This document shows positions 39,997 to 59,999 of a stretch of 64,000 bases of DNA, piece by piece. This stretch comes from Candidatus Cloacimonadales bacterium. GTDB taxonomy: Bacteria > Cloacimonadota > Cloacimonadia > Cloacimonadales > DAONDQ01. Within the stretch, counting starts at the first letter, position 1. The number at the start of each line of letters is the position of its first letter. The DNA lies in contig OY759316.1 in the NCBI GenBank assembly GCA_963662275.1, positions 1,120,001-1,184,000 on the forward strand, written 5' to 3'. The notes under the pieces were generated by a model. The model saw nothing but the letters and a program-made list of their open reading frames with translations, was not told the DNA's origin and did no database searches. Both the position numbers and the translations under genes were made by a program.

Positions 39997-40000
39997 TGCA

Positions 40001-40176: not shown

Positions 40177-40194
40177 TCTTATCAGGAGTAAAAG

Positions 40195-40893: not shown

Positions 40894-40904
40894 AGGAGTT
40901 CATT

Positions 40905-41135: not shown

Positions 41136-41145
41136 AGGAGTCAAA

Positions 41146-41535
41146 ATGGCTAAATGTAATTGTGAAGGCGGCTGTGCTTCCAGTACATCGAACAAATCTG
41201 TCTTCGCCTGCTCCGGAGCGAGTAATGTTGGCAAGTTATCATATGACTTGGCAATCGAACTGCATAAGATAGATAAGTACAAAATCAGCTGTGCTATTGG
41301 AGTTGGAGCAGATATAGGTGGATTTATCAACGAAGCTAAATCTGATGATAATACTAATCTCTTGATCGATGGCTGTCCTGTTGGATGCTTGAAGCATATG
41401 TTCGATAATAAGGGCATAACAAATTATGACCATATTGTACTTACTGAAATGGGTATCAAAAAAGATGGTACGTTAAAGTATGATAGTGAAGTATTGCCAA
41501 GATTAATTAATGAAATTGAAGAGATGGGGTTATAA
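41146..41535 (+). CDS. DGC-domain putative zinc-binding protein
   Basis: ACSGASNVG and IDGCPVGC motifs. Confidence 0.8.
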   Translation: MAKCNCEGGCASSTSNKSVFACSGASNVGKLSYDLAIELHKIDKYKISCAIGVGADIGGFINEAKSDDNTNLLIDGCPVGCLKHMFDNKGITNYDHIVLTEMGIKKDGTLKYDSEVLPRLINEIEEMGL

Positions 41536-41937
41536 ATGAAAAAACTAATGATCATATTAAGTGCGATCATGATAGTCGGTTCCTTGTTTTGTGTTACACC
41601 GACAGTTGTTAAAGCTAAAGTTAAAGCGAAAGCAAAGCCTCAGGTTACATTTATCGAACTTGGTTCCGTGAACTGTATCCCCTGTAAGCAAATGCAGCCT
41701 GTGATGAAGGAAATCGAAACAACATACGGAGATAAAGTGCAGGTCGTGTTTTATGATGTCTGGCAGCCGAAAGATAAGGATAAGGCTGCCAAATATAAGA
41801 TTAAACTGATACCTACTCAAGTCTTTCTGGATAAAGATGGTAAGGAATTTTCCAGGCATGAAGGTTTCTTTCCTAAAGAGGAGATCATGAAACTAATCGA
41901 TCCTAAACTTGGTATCAAGAGAACTGCAAAAAAGTAA
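41536..41937 (+). CDS. Exported thioredoxin-family protein
   Basis: Signal peptide; CIPC; IPTQVF; RHEGF. Confidence 0.8.
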   Translation: MKKLMIILSAIMIVGSLFCVTPTVVKAKVKAKAKPQVTFIELGSVNCIPCKQMQPVMKEIETTYGDKVQVVFYDVWQPKDKDKAAKYKIKLIPTQVFLDKDGKEFSRHEGFFPKEEIMKLIDPKLGIKRTAKK

Positions 41938-41959
41938 GATATAACATATAGATGGGTAT

Positions 41960-42340
41960 ATGAAAAGGATATTGATAGTATTGAGTTTGCTCGTTATATT
42001 TCATGCTTTGTATGGTGTAAGCAAAACGGCACCCCAAAATACGAAGCAACCACAAGCTAAACCGCTAATTACATTCGTGGAAATTGGCTCTGTGAATTGC
42101 GTTCCCTGCCGACAGATGAAACCTGTGATGAAAGCAATCGAAGAGAAGTATACCGGTAAAGTGAAAGTTGTGTTCTATGATGTGAATAAACAAAGAGCAA
42201 AAGCAAATGAGTATTATATCAAACTCATACCAACCCAGGTATTTTTAGACGCTAAAGGAAAGGAATTCTGGAGGCATGAGGGCTTCTATCCACAAAAGGA
42301 TATAGAAAAGCTGATCGATGAGAAATTAGCAAAGAAATAA
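41960..42340 (+). CDS. Exported thioredoxin-family protein (paralog of the preceding gene)
   Basis: Signal peptide; CVPC; IPTQVF; RHEGF. Confidence 0.8.
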   Translation: MKRILIVLSLLVIFHALYGVSKTAPQNTKQPQAKPLITFVEIGSVNCVPCRQMKPVMKAIEEKYTGKVKVVFYDVNKQRAKANEYYIKLIPTQVFLDAKGKEFWRHEGFYPQKDIEKLIDEKLAKK

Positions 42341-42353
42341 ACTCGAGGTCATA

Positions 42354-43415
42354 ATGAAGAAGAATATCAAGAAGAACGAAGGGATAGGTTTTTTTGAAAA
42401 GTATTTAACGCTTTGGGTTATCCTATGTATGGCTGCGGGAGTACTAATTGGCAGATTCCTTCCGGGGATTCCCGCTTTCCTGGGACAGTTTGAATATGCC
42501 AAAGTATCTATTCCAATTGCCATCCTGATTTGGCTGATGATCTATCCTATGATGATGAAAGTGGACTTTGCCAGTATCAAAAATGTTGGAAAGAACCCCA
42601 AGGGATTGTATGTGACCTGGGTAACCAATTGGCTGATCAAGCCATTCACGATGTATGCCATTGCCTGGTTTTTCTTCTTTATCGTGTTTAAATCACTCAT
42701 ACCTGCCAATCTTGCGAAGGATTACCTGGCAGGAGCAATCTTACTCGGGGCAGCACCATGTACAGCGATGGTCTTTGTCTGGAGTCATTTGACAAAAGGT
42801 GATCCGGCTTATACAGTTGTACAGGTTGCAACCAATGATTTGATCATCCTGGTTGCTTTTACACCAATCGTAGCATTTTTGCTTGGTGTCAGTGGCATTA
42901 CCATTCCCTGGAATACATTGTTACTTTCTGTATTACTGTTTGTCGTTATTCCTCTTGCCGGTGGTATAATAACACGTATGATTGTTATCAAACGCAATGG
43001 TGAGGAATACTTCAATAAGAGCTTTATTACCAAATTCAATCATGTTACTGTTGGTGGGCTGCTATTGACACTGATCATCATATTTGCATTCCAGGGTGAT
43101 ATCATTCTTCATAATCCGCTGCATATTCTCCTGATCGCAGTGCCATTAACCATTCAAACCTTCCTAATCTTCTTCATAGCCTATCTGGCAAGCAGGAAAC
43201 TGAAACTTGCATACAGCATTGCAGCACCAGCAGGTATGATCGGCGCATCCAATTTCTTTGAATTATCTGTGGCAGTGGCAATTTCCCTGTTTGGACCCAC
43301 TTCTCCTGTTGCTCTGGCGACAATAGTGGGTGTTTTGGTGGAAGTACCTGTCATGCTAACGCTTGTAAAGATAGCGAATAGCACTCAACATTGGTTTCCT
43401 GCACTAAAACAGTAG
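42354..43415 (+). CDS. acr3: ACR3 family arsenite efflux transporter
   Basis: FFEKYLTLWV, MIYPMM, GAAPCTAMVFVWS, SNFFEL, VEVPVM. Confidence 0.93.
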   Translation: MKKNIKKNEGIGFFEKYLTLWVILCMAAGVLIGRFLPGIPAFLGQFEYAKVSIPIAILIWLMIYPMMMKVDFASIKNVGKNPKGLYVTWVTNWLIKPFTMYAIAWFFFFIVFKSLIPANLAKDYLAGAILLGAAPCTAMVFVWSHLTKGDPAYTVVQVATNDLIILVAFTPIVAFLLGVSGITIPWNTLLLSVLLFVVIPLAGGIITRMIVIKRNGEEYFNKSFITKFNHVTVGGLLLTLIIIFAFQGDIILHNPLHILLIAVPLTIQTFLIFFIAYLASRKLKLAYSIAAPAGMIGASNFFELSVAVAISLFGPTSPVALATIVGVLVEVPVMLTLVKIANSTQHWFPALKQ

Positions 43416-43435
43416 ATGAATCATGGTGAATGTGA

Positions 43436-43597
43436 TTGAAGTTCTTATCAGAGAAAGGATACATTTTGGTGGCATCACATATCGGTGGAGTACTTGATTG
43501 GGAGAGTGATGGTATGCCTATTTGCATTAATACGGATAATGAATTGGTAGGAGGTTGTGCCTGCCAGTTAAGACCAAGAAAATCCTGGAAAACATAA
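43436..43597 (+). pseudogene. Truncated C-terminal fragment of a rhodanese-like protein
   Basis: Hand translation LKFLSEKGYILVASHIGGVLDWESDGMP...GGCACQLRPRKSWKT*, with a GG...W...G.P rhodanese C-terminal pattern; in-frame stops immediately upstream. Confidence 0.5.
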
Positions 43598-43615
43598 TAA
43601 ACTTATACATTAACA

Positions 43616-45476
43616 GAGACTGTTCATGAAGTTATTCATAATATTCAATAAGTTAGAAAGTAGCAAGTTGAAAAAAGTGGTCGAAACGGTCATAATTTAA
43701 CATACCTTCCAGAATTGACAGATAAGCTCTGCTAAGGACACCAAATCACAAGTTAAGCTTTTTGACTAAAATTGAAAAACACGCGATTATAAGTAATGTT
43801 TCGAAGCCGTTTCTGACTAAATGTGTAGTTAAAATCATATAAAATAGTTCTTTACAAGTTTTTTGCTATAGCTTCAATGGCATTTGTTACCTGGTAACAA
43901 AAGGGAGGATATTATGACAAAAAAACACTCCAATTCAAGAAGCGGTAAGTGTTAGTCATGAAAGTAACCAATACCATGTAAGTATTAACGTACCATTTTC
44001 ATTCACTTTGCCTGAGACAACATCAAACCACAAGTTCTTAATAGCGTTTCTACGCTTATTAGTAGGAATAGGCGGAGACAACCTCCTTACACTTCAGCAA
44101 ATAGCTGATCTGTTTAACTACGCAGACCGCAGGAATGTACATAATTTCTGGCAAGAGTTTGAGCAGCATGGTCATGATATCCTGGCATATTTAAGCCGGA
44201 AAGTTGACCTGCTGGAGTGTATTCCTCAGATCGAGAATTTTGTTATCAATAACCTGCTTTTACCTTTAAATGTCATGTATCAGGAGTTCATCAGCCATCA
44301 TGATTTTAAAATGTCCTATACCACTTTCTGCAAATATGCTTCTCAGGTCAATTCTCTGTCTGTAGTTAAGCAAGCTCAGAAGCTTCTTCTGAAAAAGACA
44401 GTAGGCGGTGATGCTGTACATCTGCTGAAACTGCTTGCCGGTCAGCAGAATACACCTGTTATCTGTGACAGACTCCTGGAACAAATGAAGACTGCTAAAG
44501 GCAATACATCCCATAGAACCGCCGATGCAAAGCCGTTCCATAGTCTGGAACGCAAGAACCTGTGTCTGCTGGTACATTACCTGGTTGGAAGCGGTATGAA
44601 CTTCGAGACGATAGCTTTGCTGCTCAACACCTGTAAAGCTACAGTCTCAAATCTCTGGCATGAAATCGCTGACCTGCAGAGCCTGATTCTGAACTCAATC
44701 GGTAAGTGGAGCGGAAAGATCAGCATTGATGAGAAATATGTGAAGATCAAAGGTATTCCGTACTATGTCATCAGTATTGTTGATTTTGTGACTCACATCC
44801 CTCTGTTTTGTGAGTTGTATCCTGACACAAAGAAAGAATCATTCGAAGCATGTTTCAGAACCTTCAGACAGCTCTACAGGAAAGATCCAACCCTGATTGT
44901 CAGTGATGGCAGTAAATCGTTAGCAGTTGCAAGAAAAACAGTGTTTCCAAAAGTCCATTACCAACTCTGTAAGTTCCATAAGATACGAAATCTCTTCAAA
45001 AGAATCAGTCAATGTCATCTCCCTGAAGACAGGGACAAGTTCTTTAAGAAGAGGATTATGAAAGCTTTCCGAAGAGAAACGGCGGGCGGAAGGAAAAAGG
45101 GTATCGCAAGCCTGACAGCTATTACTCCCCCAACCGCCGCCGAATACATCAAAAGCAATATCATTAGTGATTGGAGACACCTCAGCAAAGGTTTGACTTC
45201 CAATGTCTCTGAACGCTGGAACCGCAAAATCAAGAAGGTGACATCCGGTAGATTTGGACTAAAATCTGAAGAAACCACCCGCAACCTTGTGTTTTCGCTT
45301 TGGTTCAAAGAACTGGTCGATAAAGGTCAACCAATCATGCGTCAGGAATCACTTTTAGCAAGTTTAAATATCTCCCGCATATGTCAAGAAAATGTGGATT
45401 GGTCGCACTTAGACCACTTTTTCTCTGTCACTACCAATAAGGCTGCGTAAAATGGAGGTTAATTTTGAACAGTCTC
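43616..45476 (+). mobile_element. Complete insertion sequence, 1861 bp, DDE type (family uncertain; IS256/Mutator-like or IS6-like motifs)
   Basis: TIR GAGACTGTTCA (43616-43626) / TGAACAGTCTC (45466-45476); 8-bp TSD CATTAACA at 43608-43615 and 45477-45484. Confidence 0.92.
44008..45450 (+). CDS. DDE transposase (natural start probably ATG 43914, out of frame by one base)
   Basis: ISIDEKYVK, IVSDG, CKFH, SERWNR; N-terminal HTH-like segments; frame open from 43918. Confidence 0.85.
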   Translation: MPETTSNHKFLIAFLRLLVGIGGDNLLTLQQIADLFNYADRRNVHNFWQEFEQHGHDILAYLSRKVDLLECIPQIENFVINNLLLPLNVMYQEFISHHDFKMSYTTFCKYASQVNSLSVVKQAQKLLLKKTVGGDAVHLLKLLAGQQNTPVICDRLLEQMKTAKGNTSHRTADAKPFHSLERKNLCLLVHYLVGSGMNFETIALLLNTCKATVSNLWHEIADLQSLILNSIGKWSGKISIDEKYVKIKGIPYYVISIVDFVTHIPLFCELYPDTKKESFEACFRTFRQLYRKDPTLIVSDGSKSLAVARKTVFPKVHYQLCKFHKIRNLFKRISQCHLPEDRDKFFKKRIMKAFRRETAGGRKKGIASLTAITPPTAAEYIKSNIISDWRHLSKGLTSNVSERWNRKIKKVTSGRFGLKSEETTRNLVFSLWFKELVDKGQPIMRQESLLASLNISRICQENVDWSHLDHFFSVTTNKAA

Positions 45477-45572
45477 CATTAACATCTTTCTATTGTTTTC
45501 AGATTATCCTTGACATGATATTTTATCTTTTAGTTATTAACAATTCAAAATAATCAAGGAAAAGGATGTCTT

Positions 45573-47102
45573 ATGCTGAATATATCAATTGCTCCTGATG
45601 GAACCGAATATCCTTTGCCAGTTGCAGAGGATAGCGAGAAAGAAAAAGCGATTCTACTTAAAATAACGGATGAACAAAGAAAGCTTGGTCGAAAGATTGT
45701 AGCGGTTCAAGGATTGGGTTTCGTTGGCTGTGTCATGGCTACAGTTGTTGCAGATGCAACCGATGCCAATGGAAAACCTATCTATTATGTTCATGGTCAT
45801 CAAAGAGCCTCAAAGCGTTCCTATTGGAAAGTTCCCATGATAAATACAGGTATTCCACCTGTGAGTTCCTCAGATCCTGAAGTACCTGAAATCTTCCATC
45901 GCTGCGTGAATGAAAAGAAGAATTTTCGTGCCACTTGGGAAGATTCAGTATATGAAATGGCAGATGTTGTTGTTGTAGATATTCAACTTGATGCCACGAA
46001 ACCTGCATTTGGCGAAGCTGAGAAAGGCTATTGCGATCTTTCTGCATTCCGGGAAGGAATCCGTATGCTGGGAAGATATATTAAACCTGAATGCCTGATT
46101 CTTGTGGAAACAACTGTACCACCAGGAACTTGTGAGAAAGTTGTCAAACCTATCATAGAAGAAGAATTTAAGAAACGCGGGATTACCCAGCCTGCATTAA
46201 TTGCACATTCCTATGAACGTGTCATGCCAGGTGCAAAGTATGTTGCTTCTATCCGTGATTTCTGGCGTGTGTATTCAGGTGTAAACCAGAAAAGCATCGA
46301 TATGTGCCGTGCTTTCCTAACCGATGTTCTTGATACAAAGAATTTCCCTTTGACTGAATTGGATAACACAAATGCTTCAGAAATGTCTAAAGTGATGGAA
46401 AACTCTTACCGTGCAACCAACATTGCCCTGACCTTGGAATGGGCTAAATTTGCAGAGCAGATTGGTGTCGATTTGTTCAAAGTCCGTGATGCCATTCGTA
46501 AACGTAAAGGCACACATGACAACCTTCTTCGTCCAAGCCTTGGTGTGGGTGGATATTGTCTTACTAAAGACCCGGTTCTTGCTAATTGGGCGATGGGTGC
46601 CTTATTCAATTTGGAAGGTAAGCTTGATGTTGCTATTCGTTCGGTGAATATCAACGATACAATGCCTTTACATACGATTGAACTGATCAAACCTGAATTT
46701 GCAGGTCTGAAGGATGTGAAGATCGCTGTACTTGGTGTTTCCTATTTGGAAAACTTAGGTGATACTCGTCATTCACCTTCTAAGACACTAGTGGAATTTT
46801 TGAATAAGGAAAATGCCCTTGTTAGATGTCATGATCCTTATGTCGAATCCTGGGCTGAGATGGAAGAAGTGAGAGTCTATCGAGATATCGATGATGTACT
46901 TCCGGAAGCAGATGTAGTCGTTTTTGCAGTTGGGCACGATGAATATAGGAAAATATTACCTCGTGAACTCATTGAAATATGTGGAACGAGACCTCTGATC
47001 ATTGATTGCTCGAATTTACTTGATGATGATACAATTAAAAAGTATATTGCTCTTGGCTGCAAGGTCAAAGGTGTTGGAAAAGGACATATCAGTCGCTTAT
47101 AG
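45573..47102 (+). CDS. UDP-glucose/GDP-mannose dehydrogenase family nucleotide-sugar dehydrogenase
   Basis: GLGFVG, ETTVPPGT, KVMENSYR, GVGGYCLTKDP, DTRHSP. Confidence 0.9.
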   Translation: MLNISIAPDGTEYPLPVAEDSEKEKAILLKITDEQRKLGRKIVAVQGLGFVGCVMATVVADATDANGKPIYYVHGHQRASKRSYWKVPMINTGIPPVSSSDPEVPEIFHRCVNEKKNFRATWEDSVYEMADVVVVDIQLDATKPAFGEAEKGYCDLSAFREGIRMLGRYIKPECLILVETTVPPGTCEKVVKPIIEEEFKKRGITQPALIAHSYERVMPGAKYVASIRDFWRVYSGVNQKSIDMCRAFLTDVLDTKNFPLTELDNTNASEMSKVMENSYRATNIALTLEWAKFAEQIGVDLFKVRDAIRKRKGTHDNLLRPSLGVGGYCLTKDPVLANWAMGALFNLEGKLDVAIRSVNINDTMPLHTIELIKPEFAGLKDVKIAVLGVSYLENLGDTRHSPSKTLVEFLNKENALVRCHDPYVESWAEMEEVRVYRDIDDVLPEADVVVFAVGHDEYRKILPRELIEICGTRPLIIDCSNLLDDDTIKKYIALGCKVKGVGKGHISRL

Positions 47103-47202
47103 GTGTTAGGTTCTAGGTTCTAGGTGTAAGGGGCAGAGAAGATTTTTTCCACCAAATACCGGAATACTATACTGAATATTAATATTGATTATTACTAAAG
47201 AT

Positions 47203-47229
47203 AAGCCCCGATAACGATCGGGGCTTTTT
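47203..47229 (+). terminator. Intrinsic terminator after the nucleotide-sugar dehydrogenase
   Basis: AAGCCCCGAT-loop-ATCGGGGCTTTTT hairpin with U tract. Confidence 0.7.
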
Positions 47230-47325
47230 CCATTGAAGAGTTAATTTCTGAACAAATTCTAAAAATACACATCCGAAGAATGAATACAGCTTGATTTCAT
47301 GAAAATGGATATTCTCAATCTGGAC

Positions 47326-47388
47326 TAGCACCTAGCACCTAGCACCTAACACCTAACACCTAGCACCTAGCACCTAGAACCTAAGACC
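47326..47388. repeat. Heptamer tandem array TA(G/A)CACC, about 9 units; short inverted array at 47100-47127
   Basis: TAGCACC/TAACACC/TAGAACC units read directly. Confidence 0.85.
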
Positions 47389-47430
47389 TTCTGCTTGACA
47401 AAAACCTCATCATCACTGAAAAGGAATTCA

Positions 47431-47518
47431 CGCCGAGTGGCAGGTTCTAAACTACATAGCATGAACTGTCACCGATAGGGTATAACGGGAAACGGTTATA
47501 CCTCCCTTTGGAAAGGCG
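47431..47518 (+). ncRNA. Moco/Wco (molybdenum/tungsten cofactor) riboswitch-like RNA motif, apparently lacking P3
   Basis: P1 CGCC/GGCG; P2 GUGGCA-GUUC/GAAC-UGUCAC; AGGG; P4 GGUAUAAC/GUUAUACC capped by GAAA; 3' CCUCCCUUUGGAAAGG matching the remembered moaA-leader consensus. Confidence 0.8.
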
Positions 47519-47540
47519 GGACAGAAATAACAGGACTGTC

Positions 47541-47568
47541 TTGCCTCCACGCATAAACATGGAGGTAA
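47541..47568 (+). promoter_or_regulatory. SD-sequestering hairpin (putative riboswitch expression platform)
   Basis: UUGCCUCCA (47541-47549) pairs with UGGAGGUAA (47560-47568), covering the GGAGG just before ATG 47570. Confidence 0.7.
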
Positions 47569-47569
47569 C

Positions 47570-48403
47570 ATGAAAAAGCTACTATTACTAACTCTCACAA
47601 TTGCAATGCTCTTTGTGCTTTTCGGATGCAGCGAAAAGGATAAGAGTCCCACGAAGGTTTATGGCTATAAACTGGATCAGTTCATTTCAAAAACAGCAGT
47701 ATTTGATTCTACTACTCATTCAACTTCTATGGCTGATTCAGTCGAAATTCGTAATCTTTACGCTTATGAAATTGTCAGTGCTGATTCTGATCACTGGAGT
47801 CCTCGTACTGCTACTTCTACAGCAGGATATGATTTATCTTGGAACCAGTTTAAGAATGGATTCTATATGCCCTCAGATGCTAATCTGATATCGTGGTTTC
47901 CGAATACTACTCTCCCTGGAGCTTTTAAAGTTAAACGTGTCGGTTTCTTCAGATTATATCGAAAAATAGATGTAACTGCTTCTGACGGTTCAACAAAGAT
48001 GGTCGAATTGAAGAGTTTACCTTTGTTTCCCATCGATAATTGGAATCATGTACAGGAAAATGCGATTAAATTAAGTGATTTAGTACAGGGAATTGCAGCT
48101 TATGATTCACTGAAAATGGTGGGAGTAGATGGTTTTTCACGTACATATAGTTCTGCACAAATTGCGGATGGTTACTACTTGTTAGATTCAGAAGTAACTA
48201 CTTTCCCATTACTTAATGGAACTACACTCACTCCTGGAATATGGAAAGTAAAGAATCTGGCTTATATAGATGTTATAGGTGTCTCTTCACCTCAATCCTT
48301 TACATTCATCAATGCTCTTGAAGAAACAGCAGATATGATCTTTCTGATGCCTTCGAGCATGAATAGTTATACAACAACAGATGTTACCGGACTATCGAAG
48401 TAG
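47570..48403 (+). CDS. Lipoprotein with two degenerate Moco-binding-like repeats
   Basis: Lipobox LFGC; repeats GYKLDQFI...VSAD...FKVKRV and AIKLSDLV...VGVDGF...WKVKNLAYI. Confidence 0.6.
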   Translation: MKKLLLLTLTIAMLFVLFGCSEKDKSPTKVYGYKLDQFISKTAVFDSTTHSTSMADSVEIRNLYAYEIVSADSDHWSPRTATSTAGYDLSWNQFKNGFYMPSDANLISWFPNTTLPGAFKVKRVGFFRLYRKIDVTASDGSTKMVELKSLPLFPIDNWNHVQENAIKLSDLVQGIAAYDSLKMVGVDGFSRTYSSAQIADGYYLLDSEVTTFPLLNGTTLTPGIWKVKNLAYIDVIGVSSPQSFTFINALEETADMIFLMPSSMNSYTTTDVTGLSK

Positions 48404-48413
48404 TAAATCACTC

Positions 48414-48968
48414 ATGTGGGATAAATTCTTTCGCAGGTTCAGTACACATGATCTGCTTTTAATATCGTTATTCAGCGCTTTGGGATTGGCGATTAAACCA
48501 ATCGTCACTCCCTTGGTGCACTTGATCTCCATGCCGCTAATGATTCCAGGCGGTTCTCTTGCTGGCGGGTTTTATATGATGTGGCTGGCTATGGCAGTTG
48601 CTTTAATACCGAAATTTGGAACAGGGTTTCTTGTTGGAATCGTTCAAGCCCTTTCAATTCTGGTCTTAGGTATTACCGGAAGTCATGGGATAGTATCGAT
48701 CATCAGTTATTCTCTCCCAGGTTTATTGATAGACATTTGTGCTCTTATGATTAAACATAGAGCCTGTTTATGGGCACAAATTCTATTCGTGATCATCGCT
48801 AATGTAACAGGTACGATCATGGTGACGCTACTAATCATGCGATTATCAATCATACCGGCTATGATTGCTCTAACCAGTGCTGCTATATCCGGGTGTCTTG
48901 GTGGTTTGCTTTCTTTTTGGTTGATTAAAAAAATGATTGCATATCATTTAGTTACTATTGAGGATTGA
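48414..48968 (+). CDS. ECF transporter S component (likely start ATG 48414; track start 48381)
   Basis: About 185 aa with six TM helices; ST.DL..I.LFSAL, PKFG, PGLL.D pattern; ECF A and T genes in the same operon. Confidence 0.75.
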   Translation: MWDKFFRRFSTHDLLLISLFSALGLAIKPIVTPLVHLISMPLMIPGGSLAGGFYMMWLAMAVALIPKFGTGFLVGIVQALSILVLGITGSHGIVSIISYSLPGLLIDICALMIKHRACLWAQILFVIIANVTGTIMVTLLIMRLSIIPAMIALTSAAISGCLGGLLSFWLIKKMIAYHLVTIED

Positions 48969-48971
48969 ACT

Positions 48972-49940
48972 ATGCGTAATGTTGTTTTAAGTTTGATAAT
49001 AATACTTGCAATGTGTCTGCCATCCATTCTAATTGGCTGGGTAGTAACCAATTCAGATGGAGGTACGAAAGTGTTTACAAATGACAGCTTTTCTAAGCTG
49101 CCTATGATTGAAGTAAAGACAGAACGGGATAAGAAGGGACAGCATCTTTCTGATCAATGGAAAGGATTTCTTCTTCAGGATTGGCTGGAGAAGAATGGTT
49201 ATACTGATTTCGGTGAGATTATTTTGGAATCTTCAGATCATTACCAGGTTCGATTATCTAAAGATGATTTGGTCAAACAGGAAGCATTGATAGCGATATT
49301 CCAAAATAATCAGCCACTTGAGCAAAAGGATATACGCCTCATACTTCCCGCTATGCGAGATATGTACTGGATTACGAACATTTCAAAGATTACACTTCAG
49401 GATAAAGATCAAGCCAACATTCCCAGTTGCATATATTGGGCAGAACCGATTATTCATGCCAAACAGCTAAGAACTGATATCGTACCATTCAAGGATATGA
49501 AGGGTTATGCTTTTACGGATTTACTTGAACCCAATATTCCCTTCCCTGATGGCGATGTCTTAGTGATGGGCAAAGATGGAGTCAGGCATCTATTGGATTA
49601 TCGCAAATTCTTAAAAAAGGCAGTACTGGAAAAGACAGAAAGCGAAGGTTATTGGCTCAAAAGTCCGGATATGCCAGCAGGAATGTGGATTAAGAACATC
49701 GCTTATGTTCAATTCAGTAAAACAGGTATACTTTTCAAAGAGGCTTTTCAGAAGAAATCATTACAGGATTTAGCTGATATGCTTCTCTGGAAGAATGTGA
49801 CTGCCTTCATACCTATTGAAAAAGATACACCGGCTAATGAGATCAAGTCATGGGAAAACAAGGAATTAAAATTACAAATGATAAACTTGTCGAACGCTCT
49901 AATTACTCATTATCCATCGATTCAACTGAAGGTCAAATGA
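48972..49940 (+). CDS. Exported protein with two sulfite-oxidase-like (Oxidored_molyb) domain repeats, no catalytic Cys apparent
   Basis: WKGFLLQDWL...ESSDHY...LIAIFQNNQPL...RLILP...WITNISKI; second repeat KGY.FTDLL...GKDG...WIKNIAYV. Confidence 0.6.
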   Translation: MRNVVLSLIIILAMCLPSILIGWVVTNSDGGTKVFTNDSFSKLPMIEVKTERDKKGQHLSDQWKGFLLQDWLEKNGYTDFGEIILESSDHYQVRLSKDDLVKQEALIAIFQNNQPLEQKDIRLILPAMRDMYWITNISKITLQDKDQANIPSCIYWAEPIIHAKQLRTDIVPFKDMKGYAFTDLLEPNIPFPDGDVLVMGKDGVRHLLDYRKFLKKAVLEKTESEGYWLKSPDMPAGMWIKNIAYVQFSKTGILFKEAFQKKSLQDLADMLLWKNVTAFIPIEKDTPANEIKSWENKELKLQMINLSNALITHYPSIQLKVK

Positions 49941-50398
49941 AGAAATTAGTTGTGATTATTCTTATTACTTTCGCATTGCTCTTGTTGTGGTCGAAACCAT
50001 TGCCTTTGTATATAGATGGTTCTCAGAATCCTATGATCATTCATAATACGAATCTTGGTGACTTTGTTCAGACTCAAATACCTTTCGTGAAAGCTGCTCT
50101 TATCGTAGGTTCTGATTCAATAGCTGTTGGAGTAACTGCAGATGAATTCGGAATGATAAGTTTAAAGTATGAAAATAATGAGTGGTTTGTAGAAAACGAT
50201 TCCCTGCCTTCACCAGCCAATATCAGGGACATTTCTAAAATCTATTTGTATAATCCATTTGCTTCAGTTACATCATCCAGTGATTCAAATCGTTTTCAAT
50301 TCACGGACATAAGGAATAATGCAGATTTTCTCGGACAGGCAGAAAAGAATGGTTATATTATCTGGAAATATCGTATTCATCAAGGAGTTAATAAATGA
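49937..50398 (+). CDS. Exported hypothetical protein, possibly a highly degenerate member of the same fold (start ATG 49937)
   Basis: Signal peptide MKKLVVII; ATGA overlap with the previous gene; IVGSD...NIRDISKI. Confidence 0.5.
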   Translation: MKKLVVIILITFALLLLWSKPLPLYIDGSQNPMIIHNTNLGDFVQTQIPFVKAALIVGSDSIAVGVTADEFGMISLKYENNEWFVENDSLPSPANIRDISKIYLYNPFASVTSSSDSNRFQFTDIRNNADFLGQAEKNGYIIWKYRIHQGVNK

Positions 50399-50835
50399 AA
50401 CCAATTCCCATATTACTTATCGGCCTTGTATTAATCCTGACAGCATTAGAGCTATGTTCCAAACAAATCATACCAAGTACAGGAATTATTCAAATCGTCA
50501 CCGAAAAGAAAACATACAATATAGCTGATCATATCTTTCAAAGACAAATGACCCAAAAAGTCAAAGCTAAACGAGGTTCGGTATGGCATGGAGTGTATCT
50601 TGCCAAATTCTTTACGGAGAATGGATTCGATGTTAAAAAATATCAGCAATGCACTTTGGTGGCAAAAGATGGAATGCGGATCACGATTCCGATGGATGAA
50701 ATTACCGATAACCAGGCATTTATTACTTTTGTGAAAGATAAGAAAAGCGGTAAGTATGATTTGAAACTTATCATGCTGCAGGACTCTTTTGAGCAGCGTT
50801 GGCTGAAATATATTGTTCAAATCATACTGGAATAA
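50395..50835 (+). CDS. Exported single Oxidored_molyb-like domain protein
   Basis: Signal-like N-terminus; WHGVYLAKF...VAKDGM.I.IPMDEI...LKLIM...WLKYIVQI. Confidence 0.6.
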   Translation: MKPIPILLIGLVLILTALELCSKQIIPSTGIIQIVTEKKTYNIADHIFQRQMTQKVKAKRGSVWHGVYLAKFFTENGFDVKKYQQCTLVAKDGMRITIPMDEITDNQAFITFVKDKKSGKYDLKLIMLQDSFEQRWLKYIVQIILE

Positions 50836-50837
50836 GA

Positions 50838-51530
50838 GTGTCATCATCTTCTTCACTTGAACTGATTGATTTATCTTTCCAATATCACAAAGAATATGAC
50901 TGGTTATTCAGAAATCTGACATTTCAATTTGAAAAGGGCAGCATTACTGCAATAACCGGTCCCAATGGCAGTGGTAAAACAACGTTACTTTATACAATCT
51001 GCGGAATCATTCCGCTGTTGTTTAAAGGAAATCTGCAAGGTCAGGTGAATTACTCTGATAAGGACATTTCCAAATATTCTTTACCCCAACTTTCGAAATG
51101 GATGAATATACTGCTGCAAGACCCAAATTATCAATTAGTGTTTCCAATTGTTGAACAGGAAATTGCATTTGGAGCTGAGAACTTGTGTTTACCTGTTTCT
51201 CAAATCGAGAAAAGAATTTGTAGAAACCTCAATCTCCTGGGAATCGAGGATTTACGCTTTGCCCACACCGCTGAATTATCCTATGGTCAAAAAAAGATGG
51301 TTTCGCTTGCATCCTTATTAGTAATGGAAAGCCAGATTCTGATCCTGGATGAACCTTCAGCCGGATTGGATGAATATGCATGTGAACTGCTAAAGACTCT
51401 GCTGCTGAATTTATCCGCTGAGGGAAGAATCATTATCTTTGCAGATCATAATTCCGAATTAGTGCAAATTGCTCATCACCGGATTACTATGCCGTATTTT
51501 TTGAACAAGGTCGATACTGATGATCTATAA
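50838..51530 (+). CDS. ECF-type ABC ATPase (likely start GTG 50838; track start 50799)
   Basis: GPNGSGKTT, LQDP..Q....VEQEIAFG.EN, LSYGQKK, ILDEP. Confidence 0.85.
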   Translation: MSSSSSLELIDLSFQYHKEYDWLFRNLTFQFEKGSITAITGPNGSGKTTLLYTICGIIPLLFKGNLQGQVNYSDKDISKYSLPQLSKWMNILLQDPNYQLVFPIVEQEIAFGAENLCLPVSQIEKRICRNLNLLGIEDLRFAHTAELSYGQKKMVSLASLLVMESQILILDEPSAGLDEYACELLKTLLLNLSAEGRIIIFADHNSELVQIAHHRITMPYFLNKVDTDDL

Positions 51531-52179
51531 TCTGCAAAATATCAGTTATGGCTATGTTCCTGGAAAGCTTATCCTGGATGAAATAAGCATGATTATCATG
51601 GAGAACGAGATCACTCTACTCACAGGAATCAATGGTTCGGGGAAAACAACTTTCTGCAGATTATTAACAGGTCTCATATCTGCTTATCAAGGAATAATCT
51701 CCTTGGAAAATAGTGATTTAAAGAACTATCAACCATATCAGATTGCTGAAAAAGTACTATATCTCAAACAGGAAGGTATTCAAAACATCGTTGCAGCTAC
51801 ACCTGGTGAAGACCTAATGATTCGACAAAGAAAATTCGTTCAGAAGGATAATACAACTTTTGAAAAAGCCAGGGAAGAGGCTCTTAAAAGTGTTGATCTT
51901 GTTCATCAAAAGAATATTCCAACCTGGGAAATGAGCGCAGGGCAGGTAAAACGGATTGGTCTTGCTACCTTATCGCTATTCACTTCATATTATTGGATAC
52001 TGGATGAGCCATATCTTGGTCTGGATACTAATTTGATAATGAAACTAAAGAAACAGCTTTCTGAGAGAAAAGAACAAGGATATGGAGCGATGATCGTTAA
52101 TCATTTGGATATTTCAGATGATTTTCAATACGATGCACACTATCATTTGAAAAATGGAAAGTTGATTAAAGTATGTTGA
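51520..52179 (+). CDS. Second ECF-type ABC ATPase
   Basis: GINGSGKTT, MSAGQ, ILDEPY, VNH. Confidence 0.8.
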   Translation: MIYNLQNISYGYVPGKLILDEISMIIMENEITLLTGINGSGKTTFCRLLTGLISAYQGIISLENSDLKNYQPYQIAEKVLYLKQEGIQNIVAATPGEDLMIRQRKFVQKDNTTFEKAREEALKSVDLVHQKNIPTWEMSAGQVKRIGLATLSLFTSYYWILDEPYLGLDTNLIMKLKKQLSERKEQGYGAMIVNHLDISDDFQYDAHYHLKNGKLIKVC

Positions 52180-54098
52180 ATAACAACCTGTTTTTTCCGT
52201 TAATCTGTATTTTAACGATTTCATCACTTTATGCTGATACTATTGCAGGTAGAGATACGATAGCGAAGGATAGTTTACAAATCAGGCATTACACATTGGA
52301 TGCGCTGCGTGTTATTGGTGAGAAACCAAGTGAAACGATTGGGTCAGTCAATATTACTAATATTGATTATGCAAATCAACCCGGTCTGCAAAATGTGAAA
52401 GATGCTTTAACAAACTTACCCGGTATCAGTATGACTGTTGGTTCAAAGGATGAAAGTAATTTACGTATCCGGGGTTTTCGAAAGAACGAAGTGAAAATAT
52501 TGTTGGATGGAAGACCTCTCAATGCAGGATATTTCGGGAATGTTAATCTCCAAAACCTGCCAGTTTCAGGTATCAGTGAAATCCAGGTATTGAAAGGACC
52601 AGTTTCTTCGATGTATGGCAGTAATACTTTGGGTGGTGTTGTTAATTTAATTACCAGGGATCCTTCAACAAGAAAATGGTTCAAATTGGGCATGAGCGTT
52701 AAAAGGAATAATACAAATCATTTCGAGTTATCTACTTCTCATCGATTCGAAAATTGGAACTATTGGTTGTTTGCTTCTCTTGAGCACAGCGATGGCTTTC
52801 TTCTTCCAAAAGACTTTCAAGCAACTAATTCAGAGAATGGTGGTGTTCGTGATAATGCCAGCAAAACCCAAGAGCTTGTGGAAGTTAAAAGCACATGCAA
52901 TATCACTGATTTTCACATGATCACTTTTACCGCAGGGGTTGCCAGTATTCCTACAAAGTATTTGCCATCATCCATTTATGAAACTAAATATCGACTTTAT
53001 AAAGACTATCAACGCCTGGAAGGCACAATTCGCAGCAATCTTCAGCTTTCACCTGGTTGGAAGCTGGATTCCATGCTCTATTTGGATGGTGGAAAGGACA
53101 CATATCAAGAGTTTAATGACCCCAATTTCCATCATATGGCAATGGATTCTGATATGAAGAATTTCACTATTGGATTTACACACCGCGCTAATTTGCAGAT
53201 GCAGGATGGAAGCGAGTTGAGCATTGGATATCGGGGTGAAAGGCAATTCAGCAATCGGAAGGATAATGGAAACTACCCAACCTGGACAGATCATTCCACA
53301 ATGCTGCATAATCTCTTTTCCCAGGTGGAATGGAAAGTATCCCAGCCATTGACTGTTACTGGCAGTGCTGGGGCTTCCTATTTCTCAAAAGATGTTGAAA
53401 AAAGTAATGCCCTGTTATTCGAACCTTCCCTGGGGGTTTACTATGAGTTTCCAAATCACGCTTCATTATCTTTGGCTGCAGGTAGAAATACGGCTTTTGG
53501 AACGATGAGACAGTTATTTAGTGTAGAGAATGGCAACATCAATTTACGTCCCCAGGTTAGCATGAAATATGAAATTACTGGTAAAAAGCCATTCCTGCTG
53601 AATACTGCAAATGGACTTCTAAGCTTGAGTCTTTATTTGAATGATGTGAAAGACTTAATCGATATTCATGGAAATACCTATCAAAATATCTATAAAGTGC
53701 GTTCTTACGGTGGTGAATCGGATTTGGAAATAGCACCCTATTCCTGGTGGAATATGACTTATTCATATTGCTATCTCGATTATGCCGATTTAAGCAGCTA
53801 TCGTTTGACTGAAAGCCCCAGAAATACGGTTGGATTGAACTGGACTTTTCTTTTACCCGTAAGAACGAAAGTCACTGTTTCTTCAAATTGGGAAGATATG
53901 CGTTTCAGTGAAGATTCAAATTTCCAATATCATCATTTGGACTCATACTGGGTACATAATCTCGCGTTGAAAAAGGAATGGCGTGATTTTTCAATAACCT
54001 TTGGCTTAGAGAACTTCACAGATACTAATTACCAGGAAGAATACGGCTTCCCTGCACAGGGAATCAACTTCTGCTTTGGTTTAGAGAAGGAATTCTGA
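52173..54098 (+). CDS. TonB-dependent outer-membrane receptor
   Basis: Signal peptide; plug motifs IRGF, LLDG.P, IQVLKGPVSSMYGSNTLGGVVNLIT; EN..D..Y; C-terminal Phe. Confidence 0.92.
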   Translation: MLNNNLFFPLICILTISSLYADTIAGRDTIAKDSLQIRHYTLDALRVIGEKPSETIGSVNITNIDYANQPGLQNVKDALTNLPGISMTVGSKDESNLRIRGFRKNEVKILLDGRPLNAGYFGNVNLQNLPVSGISEIQVLKGPVSSMYGSNTLGGVVNLITRDPSTRKWFKLGMSVKRNNTNHFELSTSHRFENWNYWLFASLEHSDGFLLPKDFQATNSENGGVRDNASKTQELVEVKSTCNITDFHMITFTAGVASIPTKYLPSSIYETKYRLYKDYQRLEGTIRSNLQLSPGWKLDSMLYLDGGKDTYQEFNDPNFHHMAMDSDMKNFTIGFTHRANLQMQDGSELSIGYRGERQFSNRKDNGNYPTWTDHSTMLHNLFSQVEWKVSQPLTVTGSAGASYFSKDVEKSNALLFEPSLGVYYEFPNHASLSLAAGRNTAFGTMRQLFSVENGNINLRPQVSMKYEITGKKPFLLNTANGLLSLSLYLNDVKDLIDIHGNTYQNIYKVRSYGGESDLEIAPYSWWNMTYSYCYLDYADLSSYRLTESPRNTVGLNWTFLLPVRTKVTVSSNWEDMRFSEDSNFQYHHLDSYWVHNLALKKEWRDFSITFGLENFTDTNYQEEYGFPAQGINFCFGLEKEF

Positions 54099-54859
54099 TG
54101 CAGGAAGAAAAGGACAACCGGCTAAACCCGGAGCTACGACTAAATACCAGGACGAAAATACTGATGGTTGTCACCCTCTCTTTTCTTGCCCTACTATACA
54201 GCCAGGTTTGGATACTTGCCATATTGACCTGTATTTCCTTACTCCTTTACATCATTGGAAAAAGGCGATCTTCTTCTAATCATTCTAAAAGCAATTTCAA
54301 ATCTCTATTGATATTAATATTCAGTCTTATGTTCATTCAAATCCTATTCCGACCTGCAGGCACGTTATTATGGCATTGGGGAGTTGTTCGCATTTCAATG
54401 GAAGGAATCAACTATGGCGTTGCTGCTTCTTTCAGAATACTGATCATCTTCCTTTCTGCTGGATACTTGCTGAGTATTTCCTATTATGAATATCTAATGG
54501 CGTTCCGATCCTGGAGACTCCCGTATGAACTATCTTTCCTCATGGCTTCCGTGCTGCAATTCCTGCCTATTCTAAGAAGGGAATTTCAATTAGTGGGAGA
54601 AGCACTCACTTTACGCGGTATAGAATTGGGGAGATTACCTTTATTGAAGAGATTAAATGCCTACCAGGAGCTTGTTTTCCCAATACTGGCTAGAGCAGTT
54701 TCTTCACTAAAGTTTCGTGTAATCTCTCTCGAAATGAGAGGTTTCCGACTTTCTAATAAACGTACTGCATTGCATGAAGATCATTTGAAGATTATTGATT
54801 ACATGGTGCAGGGCGGTCTTGTATTTATCATCACAGTCTGTTTTTACCTGAAGATTTGA
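54098..54859 (+). CDS. ECF transporter transmembrane T component
   Basis: LN.RTK, QFLP, LTLRG and LEMRGF coupling motifs. Confidence 0.85.
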   Translation: MQEEKDNRLNPELRLNTRTKILMVVTLSFLALLYSQVWILAILTCISLLLYIIGKRRSSSNHSKSNFKSLLILIFSLMFIQILFRPAGTLLWHWGVVRISMEGINYGVAASFRILIIFLSAGYLLSISYYEYLMAFRSWRLPYELSFLMASVLQFLPILRREFQLVGEALTLRGIELGRLPLLKRLNAYQELVFPILARAVSSLKFRVISLEMRGFRLSNKRTALHEDHLKIIDYMVQGGLVFIITVCFYLKI

Positions 54860-54904
54860 TGATAATACTTAACTAAGTTTCTGGAGTTCACATGATAGCT
54901 AAAA

Positions 54905-55649
54905 TTTTGAGTTCAATTGCCCAAGCAAAACTATCAATTACCACCTGGCTAGAAGGGAAAATGGACTTCAAACCGACCTTTCATCCCCGGTAGCAAAAAC
55001 TGCTTTCTGGGAAGTTCAAACCGGTAGTATGTCTGAAACATTTCTGATTCCCATCGGGAAGAAAGATACTAACACTGGATTTTAATCCGGTGATATGTAT
55101 GTGAAGAGTGACATAAATCCCATCGGGATGACAGATTGTAACTTACACCAGGCTTTATACCCATTATCTGTTCTTCATACTGGACTGATATAGGTAGGTG
55201 ATTCAGGTCGCCGGATTAAAATCCGAGTGTTAATATCTATCTTCCGTACCGGACTTGGCTTTGTAGCTTACATTGCCAATGTGTTGTGTCCAATTCCGCT
55301 GAGAATATCCAAAAGCGTGAAAATAAATGAAAACTTAGTACCATCCTAACAAAATCTAAGAAAGTCTAGATAATGCCTAGATGATTCCTAGATTATCCCT
55401 AGATGAAACATACATAATTTTATAGCTGGCTTCTTTGTTAACTATTAACTATCAGTTGCAACTTGGGAAGGGGGGAAGGGGGGTCTTAAGGCGTGTGAGA
55501 ACAATTCTTATTGCCTTCCTAAAACCGCACCCAAATAAGTATGTTACTAGAACACAAAAAGCTAGTACTCTGAAGCTAACCAAAATCTTAAATACTTTAG
55601 GAGCTGGTTAGGAGCTGACTAGGATCTGGTTAGTATCTGGTTACTATCT
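54905..55649. repeat. Intergenic mosaic of dispersed repeat families and 11-bp tandem arrays
   Basis: Degenerate TTTGGAGTTC element 54905-55022; GGATTTTAATCC copies 55050-55137 and 55206-55256; CTAGAT at 55366/77/88/99; TTAG-type units at 55597-55649. Confidence 0.7.
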
Positions 55650-55755
55650 CATTTGAATGCCATATGAGTGACTAAAAGGTTACTTCTTTTCGTACTATTA
55701 CAACGCACGGGGTGCGTTGTGCCACCTCACGGGGTGAGGCGTTCCTCTGTAATTT

Positions 55756-56472
55756 CTAATTTCCTATCAGTCTTCTCACATATCTTTGTCCATATTCATA
55801 TGCATCGGGGGTATCAATATCCAGCCATTGTAATGGATTTAGTATTTTCACAGCTTGCATTCGCTGATTTTGAATCAATACCTGGATAGCACCGCTGATT
55901 GATTCACTTCCTCTGGTTAGAGCTGATTCAACCGCTGTAAAGAAATCTTCTTCCAAGCGGAAAACTCCACAGTCTATGCCGTTGTAAACAGCAATTTCCT
56001 TACCGATATGAATGATTTTATTACCTTCACAGAAAACTTTAGTGGCATCGTCTATATCGTGAATGCTGTCACACCAGGGATCCACCAGGAGCAGGTTGAT
56101 CTTACCAGGGGCATTCACAATACTCTTCAGGGCATCAACAGCTACAATATGATCGGACATGGAAAGAATGAAACTTTCATCCTGTACGTAATCCCTTGCT
56201 TTATACACAGACAAGCCGTTACCGCGTTCCCATTCCAGGTTTTCGATGAATGTTATCGGTACTCCAAGATCAGTTTTTTCAATGTAGTCTCGGATATATC
56301 TCTGATTAAATCCCACTACAATCCCGAATTCAGTAACACCGGATAGTTTGAGCTGATGAATAATCGTGGAAAGAATCGAACCACCCGCATAGGGGAGAAG
56401 CGTTTTTGGAACTTGGTTACTGAGGTTCCACAAACGACTTCCGAAACCGGCTGCTATAATGACTGCTTTCAT
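55756..56472 (-). CDS. NTP transferase, CTP:inositol-1-phosphate cytidylyltransferase (IPCT)-like
   Basis: AAGFGSRL, PK.LL, GNGLS, MSDH, DDATKV, IGKE...IDCGVF, WLDIDT; ino1 nearby on the same strand. Confidence 0.7.
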   Translation of the reverse strand: MKAVIIAAGFGSRLWNLSNQVPKTLLPYAGGSILSTIIHQLKLSGVTEFGIVVGFNQRYIRDYIEKTDLGVPITFIENLEWERGNGLSVYKARDYVQDESFILSMSDHIVAVDALKSIVNAPGKINLLLVDPWCDSIHDIDDATKVFCEGNKIIHIGKEIAVYNGIDCGVFRLEEDFFTAVESALTRGSESISGAIQVLIQNQRMQAVKILNPLQWLDIDTPDAYEYGQRYVRRLIGN

Positions 56473-56619
56473 GATATACCTCGAATTCTGGTAATTTTCC
56501 CTCCCTTTGGATAAAGGGAGGGATTAAGGGAGAGTTTGATTCTCTGCGAGGTTGGACTTCAACCCTAATAATAGCAACGTTGCAACATTCTGGTTTGTAC
56601 TTCCCTGAAAACTAGTTTT

Positions 56620-56711
56620 CGCTACCGATGATGAAAGATCGGGTTTGAAGTCCGAATGCCCTTTTAGTCAGGTATTCAATGATAACTTGTTTAGGGCATT
56701 TGAACTCCAAA
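56620..56711 (-). repeat. 92-bp hairpin element, inverted copy of 60000-60091
   Basis: Four mismatches in 92 nt versus 60000-60091 by manual alignment. Confidence 0.85.
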
Positions 56712-56780
56712 CTCCATAGCTTACATCTATACTCAAATGAATCAAACTCTCCGACCTGAAGGTCACCTCCCTTTATCCAA

Positions 56781-57010
56781 AGGGAGGAATGGGTCTGCTG
56801 ACGCGGACCCCTACAAGCTACAAGCTTCATCCGAAGGGAGGAATGGGTCTGCTGACGCGGACCCCTACAAGCTACAAGCTTCATCCGAAGGGAGGAATGG
56901 GTCTGCTGACGCGGACCCCTACAAGCTACAAGCTTCATCCGAAGGGAGGAATGGGTCTGCTGACGCGGACCCCTACGAGTTATAAGCTTCATCCAAAGGG
57001 AGGAATGGGT
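56781..57010. repeat. 54-bp tandem repeat (4 full units plus a partial one), each with a GTAG-REP-like hairpin
   Basis: AGGGAGGAAT at 56781, 56835, 56889, 56943, 56997; internal GGGTCTGC-TGAC-GCGGACCC followed by CTAC. Confidence 0.9.
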
Positions 57011-57081
57011 TTCATCGGTGTATCTCGAAATAATTTCTCAACCGTCTAAAGGCGGAGCTACAAATCATCCGTGAACCGTCT

Positions 57082-57475
57082 CCTATCACTAACACCTATC
57101 ACCTAACACCTATCACCTAACACCTATCACCTATCACCTAACACCTAACACCTAACCCCTAACACCTAACCCCTATCACCTAACCCCTATCACCTAACCC
57201 CTATCACCTAACACCTAACACCTAACACCTAACACCTATCACCTATCACCTAACACCTAACCCCTAACCCCTAACACCTAACCCCTATCACCTAACCCCT
57301 ATCACCTAACACCTAACACCTAACACCTAACACCTAGCACCTAGCACCTAACACCTAACACCTAACACCTAACACCTAACACCTAGCACCTAGCACCTAA
57401 CCCCTATCACCTATCACCTATCACCTAACACCTAGCACCTAACACCTAACACCTATCACCTAACACCTAACACCT
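57082..57475. repeat. Long heptamer array (A/C)CCTA(A/T/G)C, about 56 units
   Basis: ACCTAAC, ACCTATC, CCCTAAC, CCCTATC, ACCTAGC units; overlaps the last codons and stop of the TagF-like gene. Confidence 0.95.
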
Positions 57476-58572: not shown

Positions 58573-58575
58573 AAA

Positions 58576-59895: not shown

Positions 59896-59999
59896 TTGTA
59901 CTCCTTATCTAAGCTTGTATTTTGAAATATAGGTGAATGAGACCGACTCTTGAGTCAAGAAAAAAGTTTAAACTGGGGAGTTTACATGAAAGCTGAGGA

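Follow-up and report, generated by a model that had tools for sequence, protein, structure and literature searches.

A riboswitch-controlled operon in Cloacimonadota that may import a finished tungsten or molybdenum pterin cofactor

Introduction

The molybdenum and tungsten cofactors (Moco and Tuco, i.e., metal-loaded molybdopterin) are usually regarded as cofactors that each user must make for itself, owing to their instability. How might a bacterium that has enzymes of this kind and no recognizable genes for making the cofactor obtain it? This question is raised by a locus in the genome of a Candidatus Cloacimonadales bacterium (GenBank assembly GCA_963662275.1, contig OY759316.1, positions 1,120,001 to 1,184,000; these 64,000 nucleotides are referred to here as the window, and coordinates are those of the window unless another contig or locus is named). 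A single tightly packed string of genes at 47419-54859 on the forward strand opens with a Moco/Tuco riboswitch and encodes four exported proteins (P1, P3, P4, and P5) with repeated sulfite oxidase (SUOX)-like domains, an energy-coupling factor (ECF) importer whose S component is P2, and a TonB-dependent outer-membrane receptor. On balance, our sequence data favor the view that this operon serves the uptake of finished tungsten/molybdenum pterin cofactor in a bacterium that is unable to make it.

Results and discussion

Four exported proteins carry a repeated SUOX-like domain

A preliminary description of the window, made from its letters, had pointed to four open reading frames (ORFs) at 47570-50835 and to about six copies of a SUOX-like domain within them. 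All four ORFs are present as described. P1 (47570-48403, 277 aa) is a lipoprotein with two SUOX/PruR-like domains. P3 (48972-49940, 322 aa) is exported and consists of a PruR-like SUOX N-terminal domain, a related C-terminal domain, and a short tail. P4 (49937-50398, 153 aa) is a single exported module distantly related to the P3 C-domain, and P5 (50395-50835, 146 aa) joins an N-terminal membrane anchor to one SUOX/PruR-like domain. Residues 52-148 of P3 match the Pfam family Oxidored_molyb (PF00174; 31.2 bits, cut-off 24, E 2e-7, profile positions 60-166 of 169); for P1, P4, and P5 the Pfam search returned nothing at E<=1. Comparison of the four proteins by pairwise BLASTP is nearly uninformative, the best result being P5 against P3 at E 2e-4.

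We aligned each family (A1-A4), split the alignments into domains, and compared these pairwise by hhalign. The P3 alignment holds 23 of 25 homologues, the truncated P0019 and P0022 having been dropped; that of P5 (A2) holds 27 sequences drawn from the ORFs of 32 related loci, and those of P4 and P1 hold 20 and 16. The P3 N-domain and P5 are clearly related (98.8%, E 8e-17; 98.5% for the whole proteins), and the N-half of P1 is an internal duplicate of the P1 C-domain (95.7%, E 9.5e-9). The P3 C-domain matches P5 at 76% (E 2e-5), and P5 matches the P1 C-domain at 58.5% (E 1e-4). With the 20-sequence alignment, P4 reached at most 14% against every other domain. A search of 1.84 billion representatives returned 77 P4 relatives, and a 70-row alignment of the window's P4 with 69 homologues matched the P3 C-domain at 92.5% (E 4.8e-7, 67 columns). 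The six copies are joined in a chain in which the links of the P3 C-domain and P4 are the weakest, and these two appear to be tied to the family by profiles alone. Chance does not account for five of the six copies (Pfam, hhalign, and predicted fold), and the sixth, in P4, which had been seen only weakly at first, is brought in by the 70-row alignment. Homologues number 25 for P3 and 79 for P5 (all of the latter unnamed); they are mostly labelled hypothetical, and those with an organism name come almost all from Cloacimonadota. Profile searches of P1, P2, P4, and P5 against Protein Data Bank (PDB) sequences gave nothing significant, and P4 had no usable match in the ESM Atlas.

Export signals were judged by eye and from the alignments. 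The lipobox Cys of P1 is at least 90% conserved. That of the P4 relatives is conserved to the same degree but has been lost from the P4 of the window. A hydrophobic anchor lies at the N terminus of P5. Outside these signals, the absence of a metal-ligating Cys noted in the preliminary description extends to the homologues, since the mature parts of all four families lack an invariant or near-invariant Cys. In SUOX enzymes Cys is reported to act as the Mo ligand (PMC11194511), and no conserved Cys of this kind was found in A1-A4. Given the lack of a conserved Cys and a Pfam match limited to the C-terminal two thirds of the profile, catalysis is not expected.

The predicted folds match PruR and SUOX enzymes

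The domain had been likened to the fold of MsrP and sulfite oxidase, and comparison of predicted models with solved structures by Foldseek and VIA-align (48,161 chains) agrees with this for the P3 N-domain and the P1 C-domain. The P3 model (predicted local distance difference test, pLDDT, 80.4) matches PruR, SoxC, SorA, and YedY. Foldseek placed PruR 7kom at the top (E 7e-8, target template modeling score 0.71), followed by SorA, chicken sulfite oxidase, and YedY. VIA-align matched the N-domain (model residues 17-143) to PruR 7rkb with Z 14.6 (root-mean-square deviation 2.6, 122 residues), to SoxC with 14.4, and to SorA with 12.9, and all ten chains with Z>=8 were SUOX or PruR. For the P1 model (pLDDT 78.2, its N-half modelled less confidently) Foldseek gave no match at E<=0.001 (E 0.068), and the fold is visible by VIA-align alone: the C-domain (about residues 128-238) matched SoxC with Z 10.2, PruR 7kp2 with 9.8, PruR 7rkb with 9.2, and SorA with 8.9. 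The ten best chains were all SUOX or PruR (Z 10.2-5.9), and the next row had Z 5.3.

PruR is described in the accessible text of its study as a non-catalytic periplasmic pterin binder of SUOX fold in which the Mo-ligand cysteine is absent; its pterin is stacked between a Tyr and a Trp and receives a hydrogen bond from an Asn two residues ahead of the Tyr, its cleft is truncated, and its ligands are small pterins such as neopterin and monapterin, not Moco (PMC11194511). In P3, residues T50, R52, W63, G65, D89, Y91, V93, R122, P126, R129, M131, and W133 are invariant, and D89-x-Y91 is aligned on the N-D-Y of PruR 7kom in a profile search of PDB sequences (E 0.007). W133 would correspond to W160 of PruR, and the extra invariant arginines may contact the phosphate or the oxo-metal of Moco. 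The second domain of P3 contains an invariant stretch, S231-PDMPAGMWIK-241. In P5, D92, W136, and K138 are invariant, so that the Asp and the Trp are retained and there is no Tyr.

A second exported Oxidored_molyb protein is encoded elsewhere in the host genome (G000:C1:3749987-3750421, minus strand; L044:1387-2079). This 230-aa protein has a lipobox and matches nearly the whole PF00174 profile (94 bits); among NCBIfam models MsrP scores best, with 64 bits, far under the cut-off. Read without an alignment, it has a Ser where the YedY-type Cys motif would lie.

A Moco/Tuco riboswitch without the P3 stem precedes the operon

The riboswitch family RF01055 matches at 47419-47534 on the forward strand (covariance model, 67.7 bits; gathering score 36; E 1e-14) over the full model, 1-135. 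It ends 35 nt ahead of the P1 start codon and is the single copy in the whole genome. Among the 32 related loci, 20 were scanned, and RF01055 lies upstream of the operon in 17 of these (8/9 and 9/11); it was not found in L010, L027, and L030. In loci without P1 the riboswitch immediately precedes the P2 gene.

The positions of the P3 hairpin of the RNA model are deleted in the window copy. Furthermore, we read the alignment as showing no P3 stem in any of its 18 copies, RNA stems P2 and P4 being joined by 3-4 nt. The accessible text of Regulski et al. (PMC2408646) associates representatives without a P3 stem with Tuco metabolism and describes the class as sensing metal-loaded cofactor. Between the aptamer and the P1 gene lies a putative expression platform (47536-47569) in which CCTCCA (47544-47549) can pair with the Shine-Dalgarno sequence TGGAGG (47560-47565). 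Folding of 47500-47580 gave -25.4 kcal/mol (z -3.2) and a paired Shine-Dalgarno sequence, there with ACCUCC of the aptamer. From its sequence, the riboswitch is probably a translational OFF switch.

The remaining genes encode an ECF importer and a TonB-dependent receptor

P2 (48414-48968) is the S component of an ECF importer (Pfam PF09819, ABC_cobalt; 40 bits, cut-off 25.2). Its ORF is open from 48381, and the starts of homologues correspond to 48414. The source names of its 194 homologues are ECF S component or thiamin/hydroxymethylpyrimidine (HMP) permease, and most come from Cloacimonadota; one, from Vallitalea okinawensis, has 47% identity. Against PDB sequences, the P2 profile matched no solved ECF S component, YkoE included. 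Two ATPases follow P5, at 50799-51530 (ABC_tran 92.5 bits, start codon uncertain) and 51520-52179 (ABC_tran 74.7 bits). The best NCBIfam models of the first are cbiO and ECF_ATPase_1, both under their cut-offs. The T component (54098-54859, Pfam CbiQ, 69.4 bits) closes the operon. With an S component, a CbiQ-type T component, and two ABC_tran genes in one operon, the importer belongs to group I.

Between the ATPases and the T component lies the gene of the TonB-dependent receptor (52173-54098), in which both the Plug domain (81.2 bits) and the beta-barrel (OMP_b-brl_3, 37.5 bits) are matched. No curated substrate-specific model was reached by the receptor; the models of haem and B12 receptors stayed sub-threshold. 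We considered haem or B12 as the substrate on account of this weak likeness and rejected both: a scan of 40000-60000 for a B12 riboswitch gave no match at E<=1, and the fold of the binders is that of pterin-binding proteins.

The operon is conserved with variations

Gene order is conserved in the 32 Cloacimonadota loci. In the loci examined, P2, P3, P4, and P5 accompany the ECF genes, and the usual inner module is P2-P3-P4-P5-ATPases-T; some genomes have the riboswitch followed by P2 and P5 without P3 and P4. P1 and the receptor are both present in 13 loci and both absent from five, and in no locus is one found alone; the remaining 14 cannot be judged because contigs end. This co-occurrence points to an outer-membrane module. 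The preliminary description had assigned the SUOX-like proteins to an ECF system as its carriers. The riboswitch, the synteny with ECF genes, and a host without matches to the biosynthesis genes lend strong support from context to that part, and it had overlooked the outer-membrane module of receptor and P1.

P4 is the most variable in length. The 69 relatives with the full domain comprise 30 of more than 380 aa, 20 of 190-230 aa, and 19 shorter ones. All six long forms tested (L012, L017, L021, L022, L024, L028) carry a C-terminal PF01663 domain (31-49 bits), a type I phosphodiesterase/nucleotide pyrophosphatase domain of the alkaline-phosphatase superfamily, which follows the 150-aa P4 module. 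In L020 and L029 the P4 forms are of intermediate length and have no Pfam match. A fused periplasmic pyrophosphatase would fit the trimming of dinucleotide forms (MGD, MCD) to plain cofactor.

In two loci (L016:4290-6221 and L017:4116-6009) the receptor gene is split in two ORFs; these are contigs of metagenome-assembled genomes, and a frameshift, a pseudogene, or an assembly error could account for the split. The operon of L023 is rearranged: P3-P4 lie on the strand opposite to that of P2, P5, the ATPases, and T, which are found a few kb away.

The host genome has cofactor-dependent enzymes and no match to the biosynthesis genes

The host genome is one closed contig of 4.38 Mb (99.97% complete). 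Six-frame searches with hidden Markov models (HMMs) gave no match to MoaC, the MoaA C-domain (Mob_synth_C), or MoaE in this genome; positive controls for the three Moa models matched in 11 of 14 reference genomes. The sole MoCF_biosynth domain belongs to CinA, and thus no MogA, MoaB, or MoeA was found. ModA, WtpA, and TupA are likewise missing from the genome, where the families SBP_bac_11 and PBP_like_2 are represented solely by a thiamine/iron-type binder and PstS. The operon itself contains no oxyanion-binding protein of either type.

The enzymes that would need the cofactor are present. We found a clear aldehyde:ferredoxin oxidoreductase (AOR; AFOR_N 161 bits, AFOR_C 327 bits) adjoining a ferredoxin, one further divergent AOR-like gene, and three large subunits (MoCoBD_1) of the xanthine dehydrogenase (XDH) family with FAD and 2Fe-2S partners. 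Since pterin-cofactor enzymes are present and the biosynthesis genes are unmatched, the host probably scavenges its cofactor ready-made. A MocA/YgfJ-like cytidylyltransferase (191 aa, L048:1486-2061, G000:C1:~1792838-1793413; TIGR03310, 98.5 bits against a cut-off of 186) adjoins an XDH/amidohydrolase cluster, and retention of a late tailoring enzyme alone would be expected of a salvager.

The system accompanies AOR across the phylum

We counted these genes in 201 Cloacimonadota genomes, the host included, and scored the system as present where P2 (threshold E<=1e-30) or P3 was found. The counts are given without a statistical test because related genomes are not independent samples. P3 has a match in 134 genomes, P2 in 146, and either of them in 149. 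P3 alone is a poor marker of the system, as 15 genomes have the S component without it. Matches to MoaC and MoaE were found in 14 and 7 genomes, to AOR in 143, and to the XDH family in 176. The system is present in 127 of the 143 AOR genomes, MoaC or MoaE is found instead in 8, and neither in 8. Completeness does not exceed 86% in five of these last 8, and in two of these five the riboswitch and P1 lie on short contigs. MoaE was found in none of the 134 P3-bearing genomes. That most of the phylum gave up making the Mo/W cofactor, and lives on the cofactor of its neighbors by means of the receptor, the Cys-free carriers, the ECF importer, and the Tuco riboswitch, is a more tentative proposition than uptake by the host itself, and we place it just on the doubtful side of even.

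A proposed route for the cofactor and the alternatives

If the operon does import finished cofactor, the parts can be arranged as follows. The TonB-dependent receptor and the lipoprotein P1 would move the cofactor across the outer membrane. In the periplasm, the Cys-less PruR-like proteins would hold the labile cofactor and hand it on (soluble P3, P4, and inner-membrane-anchored P5), and the ECF importer (P2, the T component, and the two ATPases) would carry it into the cytoplasm. There it would serve AOR and may also serve the XDH-family enzymes after cytidylylation by the MocA-like enzyme, and the Tuco-class riboswitch would close the operon when cofactor is plentiful. The data show the folds, the riboswitch, the synteny, the missing matches to genes for biosynthesis and oxyanion uptake, and the co-occurrence among genomes; the ligand, the order of the hand-over, the contacts between the proteins, and the direction of regulation are what we infer in this scheme.

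Several observations weigh against uptake of finished cofactor through this operon. AOR or XDH-family genes occur in 186 genomes, of which 29 have neither the system nor MoaC/MoaE; these 29 include all 11 genomes of one family (f6), several of them closed (e.g., G024, G044, G045, G048, and G050). The family f6 genomes have two XDH-family genes each; no MoaC, MoaE, AOR, S component, or P3 was found in them, and the riboswitch is present in 0 of 11. These 29 genomes imply that another source of cofactor must exist in the phylum, and thus auxotrophy alone does not single out the operon. Conversely, AOR is missing from 22 genomes that have the system, MoaC is found alongside P3 in three genomes, and one genome with P2 and without P3 (G068) has both MoaC and MoaE. 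The genomes counted are, in addition, related and hence not independent samples. At the level of the protein, the truncated cleft of PruR with its small pterins, taken with a P3 match limited to positions 60-166 of the profile, means that the ligand could be a smaller pterin. Finally, the cofactor is oxygen-labile, and we found no precedent for the uptake of free cofactor by bacteria.

The point about the ligand leads to the alternative that we take most seriously, though we consider it unlikely: that the imported pterin is unfinished (metal-free molybdopterin, a dephosphorylated or oxidized breakdown product, or another pterin) and is completed by an unrecognized route. In its favor, small pterins and not Moco are the ligands of PruR, to which the closest solved structures belong; P3 covers only part of the Pfam domain, and the phosphodiesterase fused to P4 in relatives suggests processing of the substrate before transport. 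Set against this is the gene content of the host: with MoaE unmatched and neither MogA nor MoeA found, no known enzyme could finish metal-free molybdopterin or cyclic pyranopterin monophosphate. The riboswitch class, moreover, is reported to sense the metal-loaded cofactor (PMC2408646). Uptake of tungstate or molybdate, by an ECF-type metal importer like CbiMNQO for cobalt and with the SUOX-like proteins binding the oxyanion, seems to us improbable. Moco riboswitches often control modABC, and one without the P3 stem is reported to precede a molybdate/tungstate transporter in Pelobacter (PMC2408646); a cell making its own cofactor would also require some oxyanion route, and the genome has no ModA-, WtpA-, or TupA-type binder. 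However, tungstate is useless without molybdopterin, and the MoaA C-domain, MoaC, MoaE, MogA, and MoeA are all unmatched in a closed genome of this completeness. The binders, furthermore, have a pterin-binding fold in which the D-x-Y and Trp positions are retained, and the S component falls in the thiamin/HMP-type PF09819 and not with CbiM/NikM.

It is also conceivable, and in our judgement very improbable, that the SUOX-like proteins merely share the operon, as periplasmic sensors (as PruR is for DcpA) or as redox enzymes with a metal ligand other than Cys. PruR, the closest solved relative, is indeed a signaling protein, and there is the other exported Oxidored_molyb lipoprotein in the host genome. 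Yet the operon has no diguanylate cyclase, kinase, or other signaling partner, and in the loci examined P2-P5 remain linked to the ECF genes. A Moco enzyme in the periplasm, for its part, would depend on a cofactor that this host is unable to produce. PruR-type signaling was rejected for want of the partner gene: no DcpA-like partner (cyclase/phosphodiesterase or kinase) was found in 47570-54859 or in the related loci examined.

Relation to known systems

PruR proteins (Agrobacterium, Vibrio, and Klebsiella; PDB 7kos, 7kou, 7kom, 7kp2, and 7rkb) resemble the proteins described here in being small, exported, and of SUOX fold without the Mo-ligand Cys. They are the best structural match of the P3 N-domain and among the best of the P1 C-domain, and the N/D-x-Y position is kept. 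Unlike the present proteins, PruR is reported as a single domain in a two-gene operon with the cyclase/phosphodiesterase DcpA and acts in signaling (PMC11194511); here four proteins with about six domains stand in a riboswitch-controlled TonB/ECF operon, and identity is 13-20%. The SUOX-family enzymes (SorA, SoxC, chicken sulfite oxidase, and YedY/MsrP) share the cofactor-binding fold (Z 14.4-9.9 for P3) and the Pfam membership of P3, whereas the proteins described here have no conserved cysteine and no dimerization or haem domain.

Group I ECF importers (YkoEDC, BioMNY, and CbiMNQO) likewise have an S component, a CbiQ-type T component, and two ATPases encoded together behind a cofactor riboswitch. 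The riboswitch here is of the Moco/Tuco type, not one for thiamin pyrophosphate or B12. To our knowledge, ECF importers as described operate without extracytoplasmic binding proteins, whereas this operon always has two to four exported proteins of a binding fold and mostly a TonB-dependent receptor. The modABC, tupABC, and moa operons behind Moco riboswitches have the same RNA family gating cofactor supply, but they make the cofactor or import the oxyanion; here a vitamin-type transporter stands with pterin-fold binders, and no biosynthesis genes were found.

Caenorhabditis elegans is reported to obtain finished Moco from other organisms through its diet; it is, in contrast, an animal, and the accessible literature on it identifies no transporter. 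We found no published bacterial importer of Moco or molybdopterin in the literature outside subscription journals, and the accessible part of one source contains a single speculative sentence on proteins of the type XI secretion system. The accessible part of a 2013 survey of riboswitch regulons has uptake categories for B12, thiamin, riboflavin, queuosine, and folate and none for Moco (PMC3766115). A preprint on the Cloacimonadota pangenome mentions AOR, and tungsten, molybd-, and cofactor appear in it nowhere.

The scavenging of ready-made cofactor would thus be a route undescribed for bacteria as far as the literature was searched. If finished Moco/Tuco is indeed imported, the prediction of Mo/W metabolism from genomes would change, because AOR or XDH-type enzymes may still operate in organisms in which the pathway is scored as absent. 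Moco/Tuco would join the cofactors traded in anaerobic digesters and sediments, as a shared "vitamin" of anaerobic communities. The importer would be the first of the ECF type to work with binding proteins, and the SUOX-like proteins would be candidates for natural Moco-stabilizing carriers.

Surroundings of the operon

Upstream of the operon are a terminator-like hairpin at 47203-47226 and an unrelated gene of the UDP-glucose-dehydrogenase family. Just 5' of the riboswitch, at 47325-47383, a 7-nt unit (CTAGCAC) is repeated in tandem (8.4 copies, 94% matches). A short TAGGTTC array (47107-47125, 2.7 copies) lies beyond the intergenic terminator, and its flanks read as the inverse of the CTAGCAC array. 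Two genes upstream of the operon, at 44008-45450 on the forward strand, is a 480-aa ORF that is transposase-like by eye alone. Elsewhere in the host genome, near the XDH cluster, an ORF (L046:7-1041) encodes a group II intron reverse transcriptase/maturase (RVT_1 136 bits, GIIM 84.5 bits).

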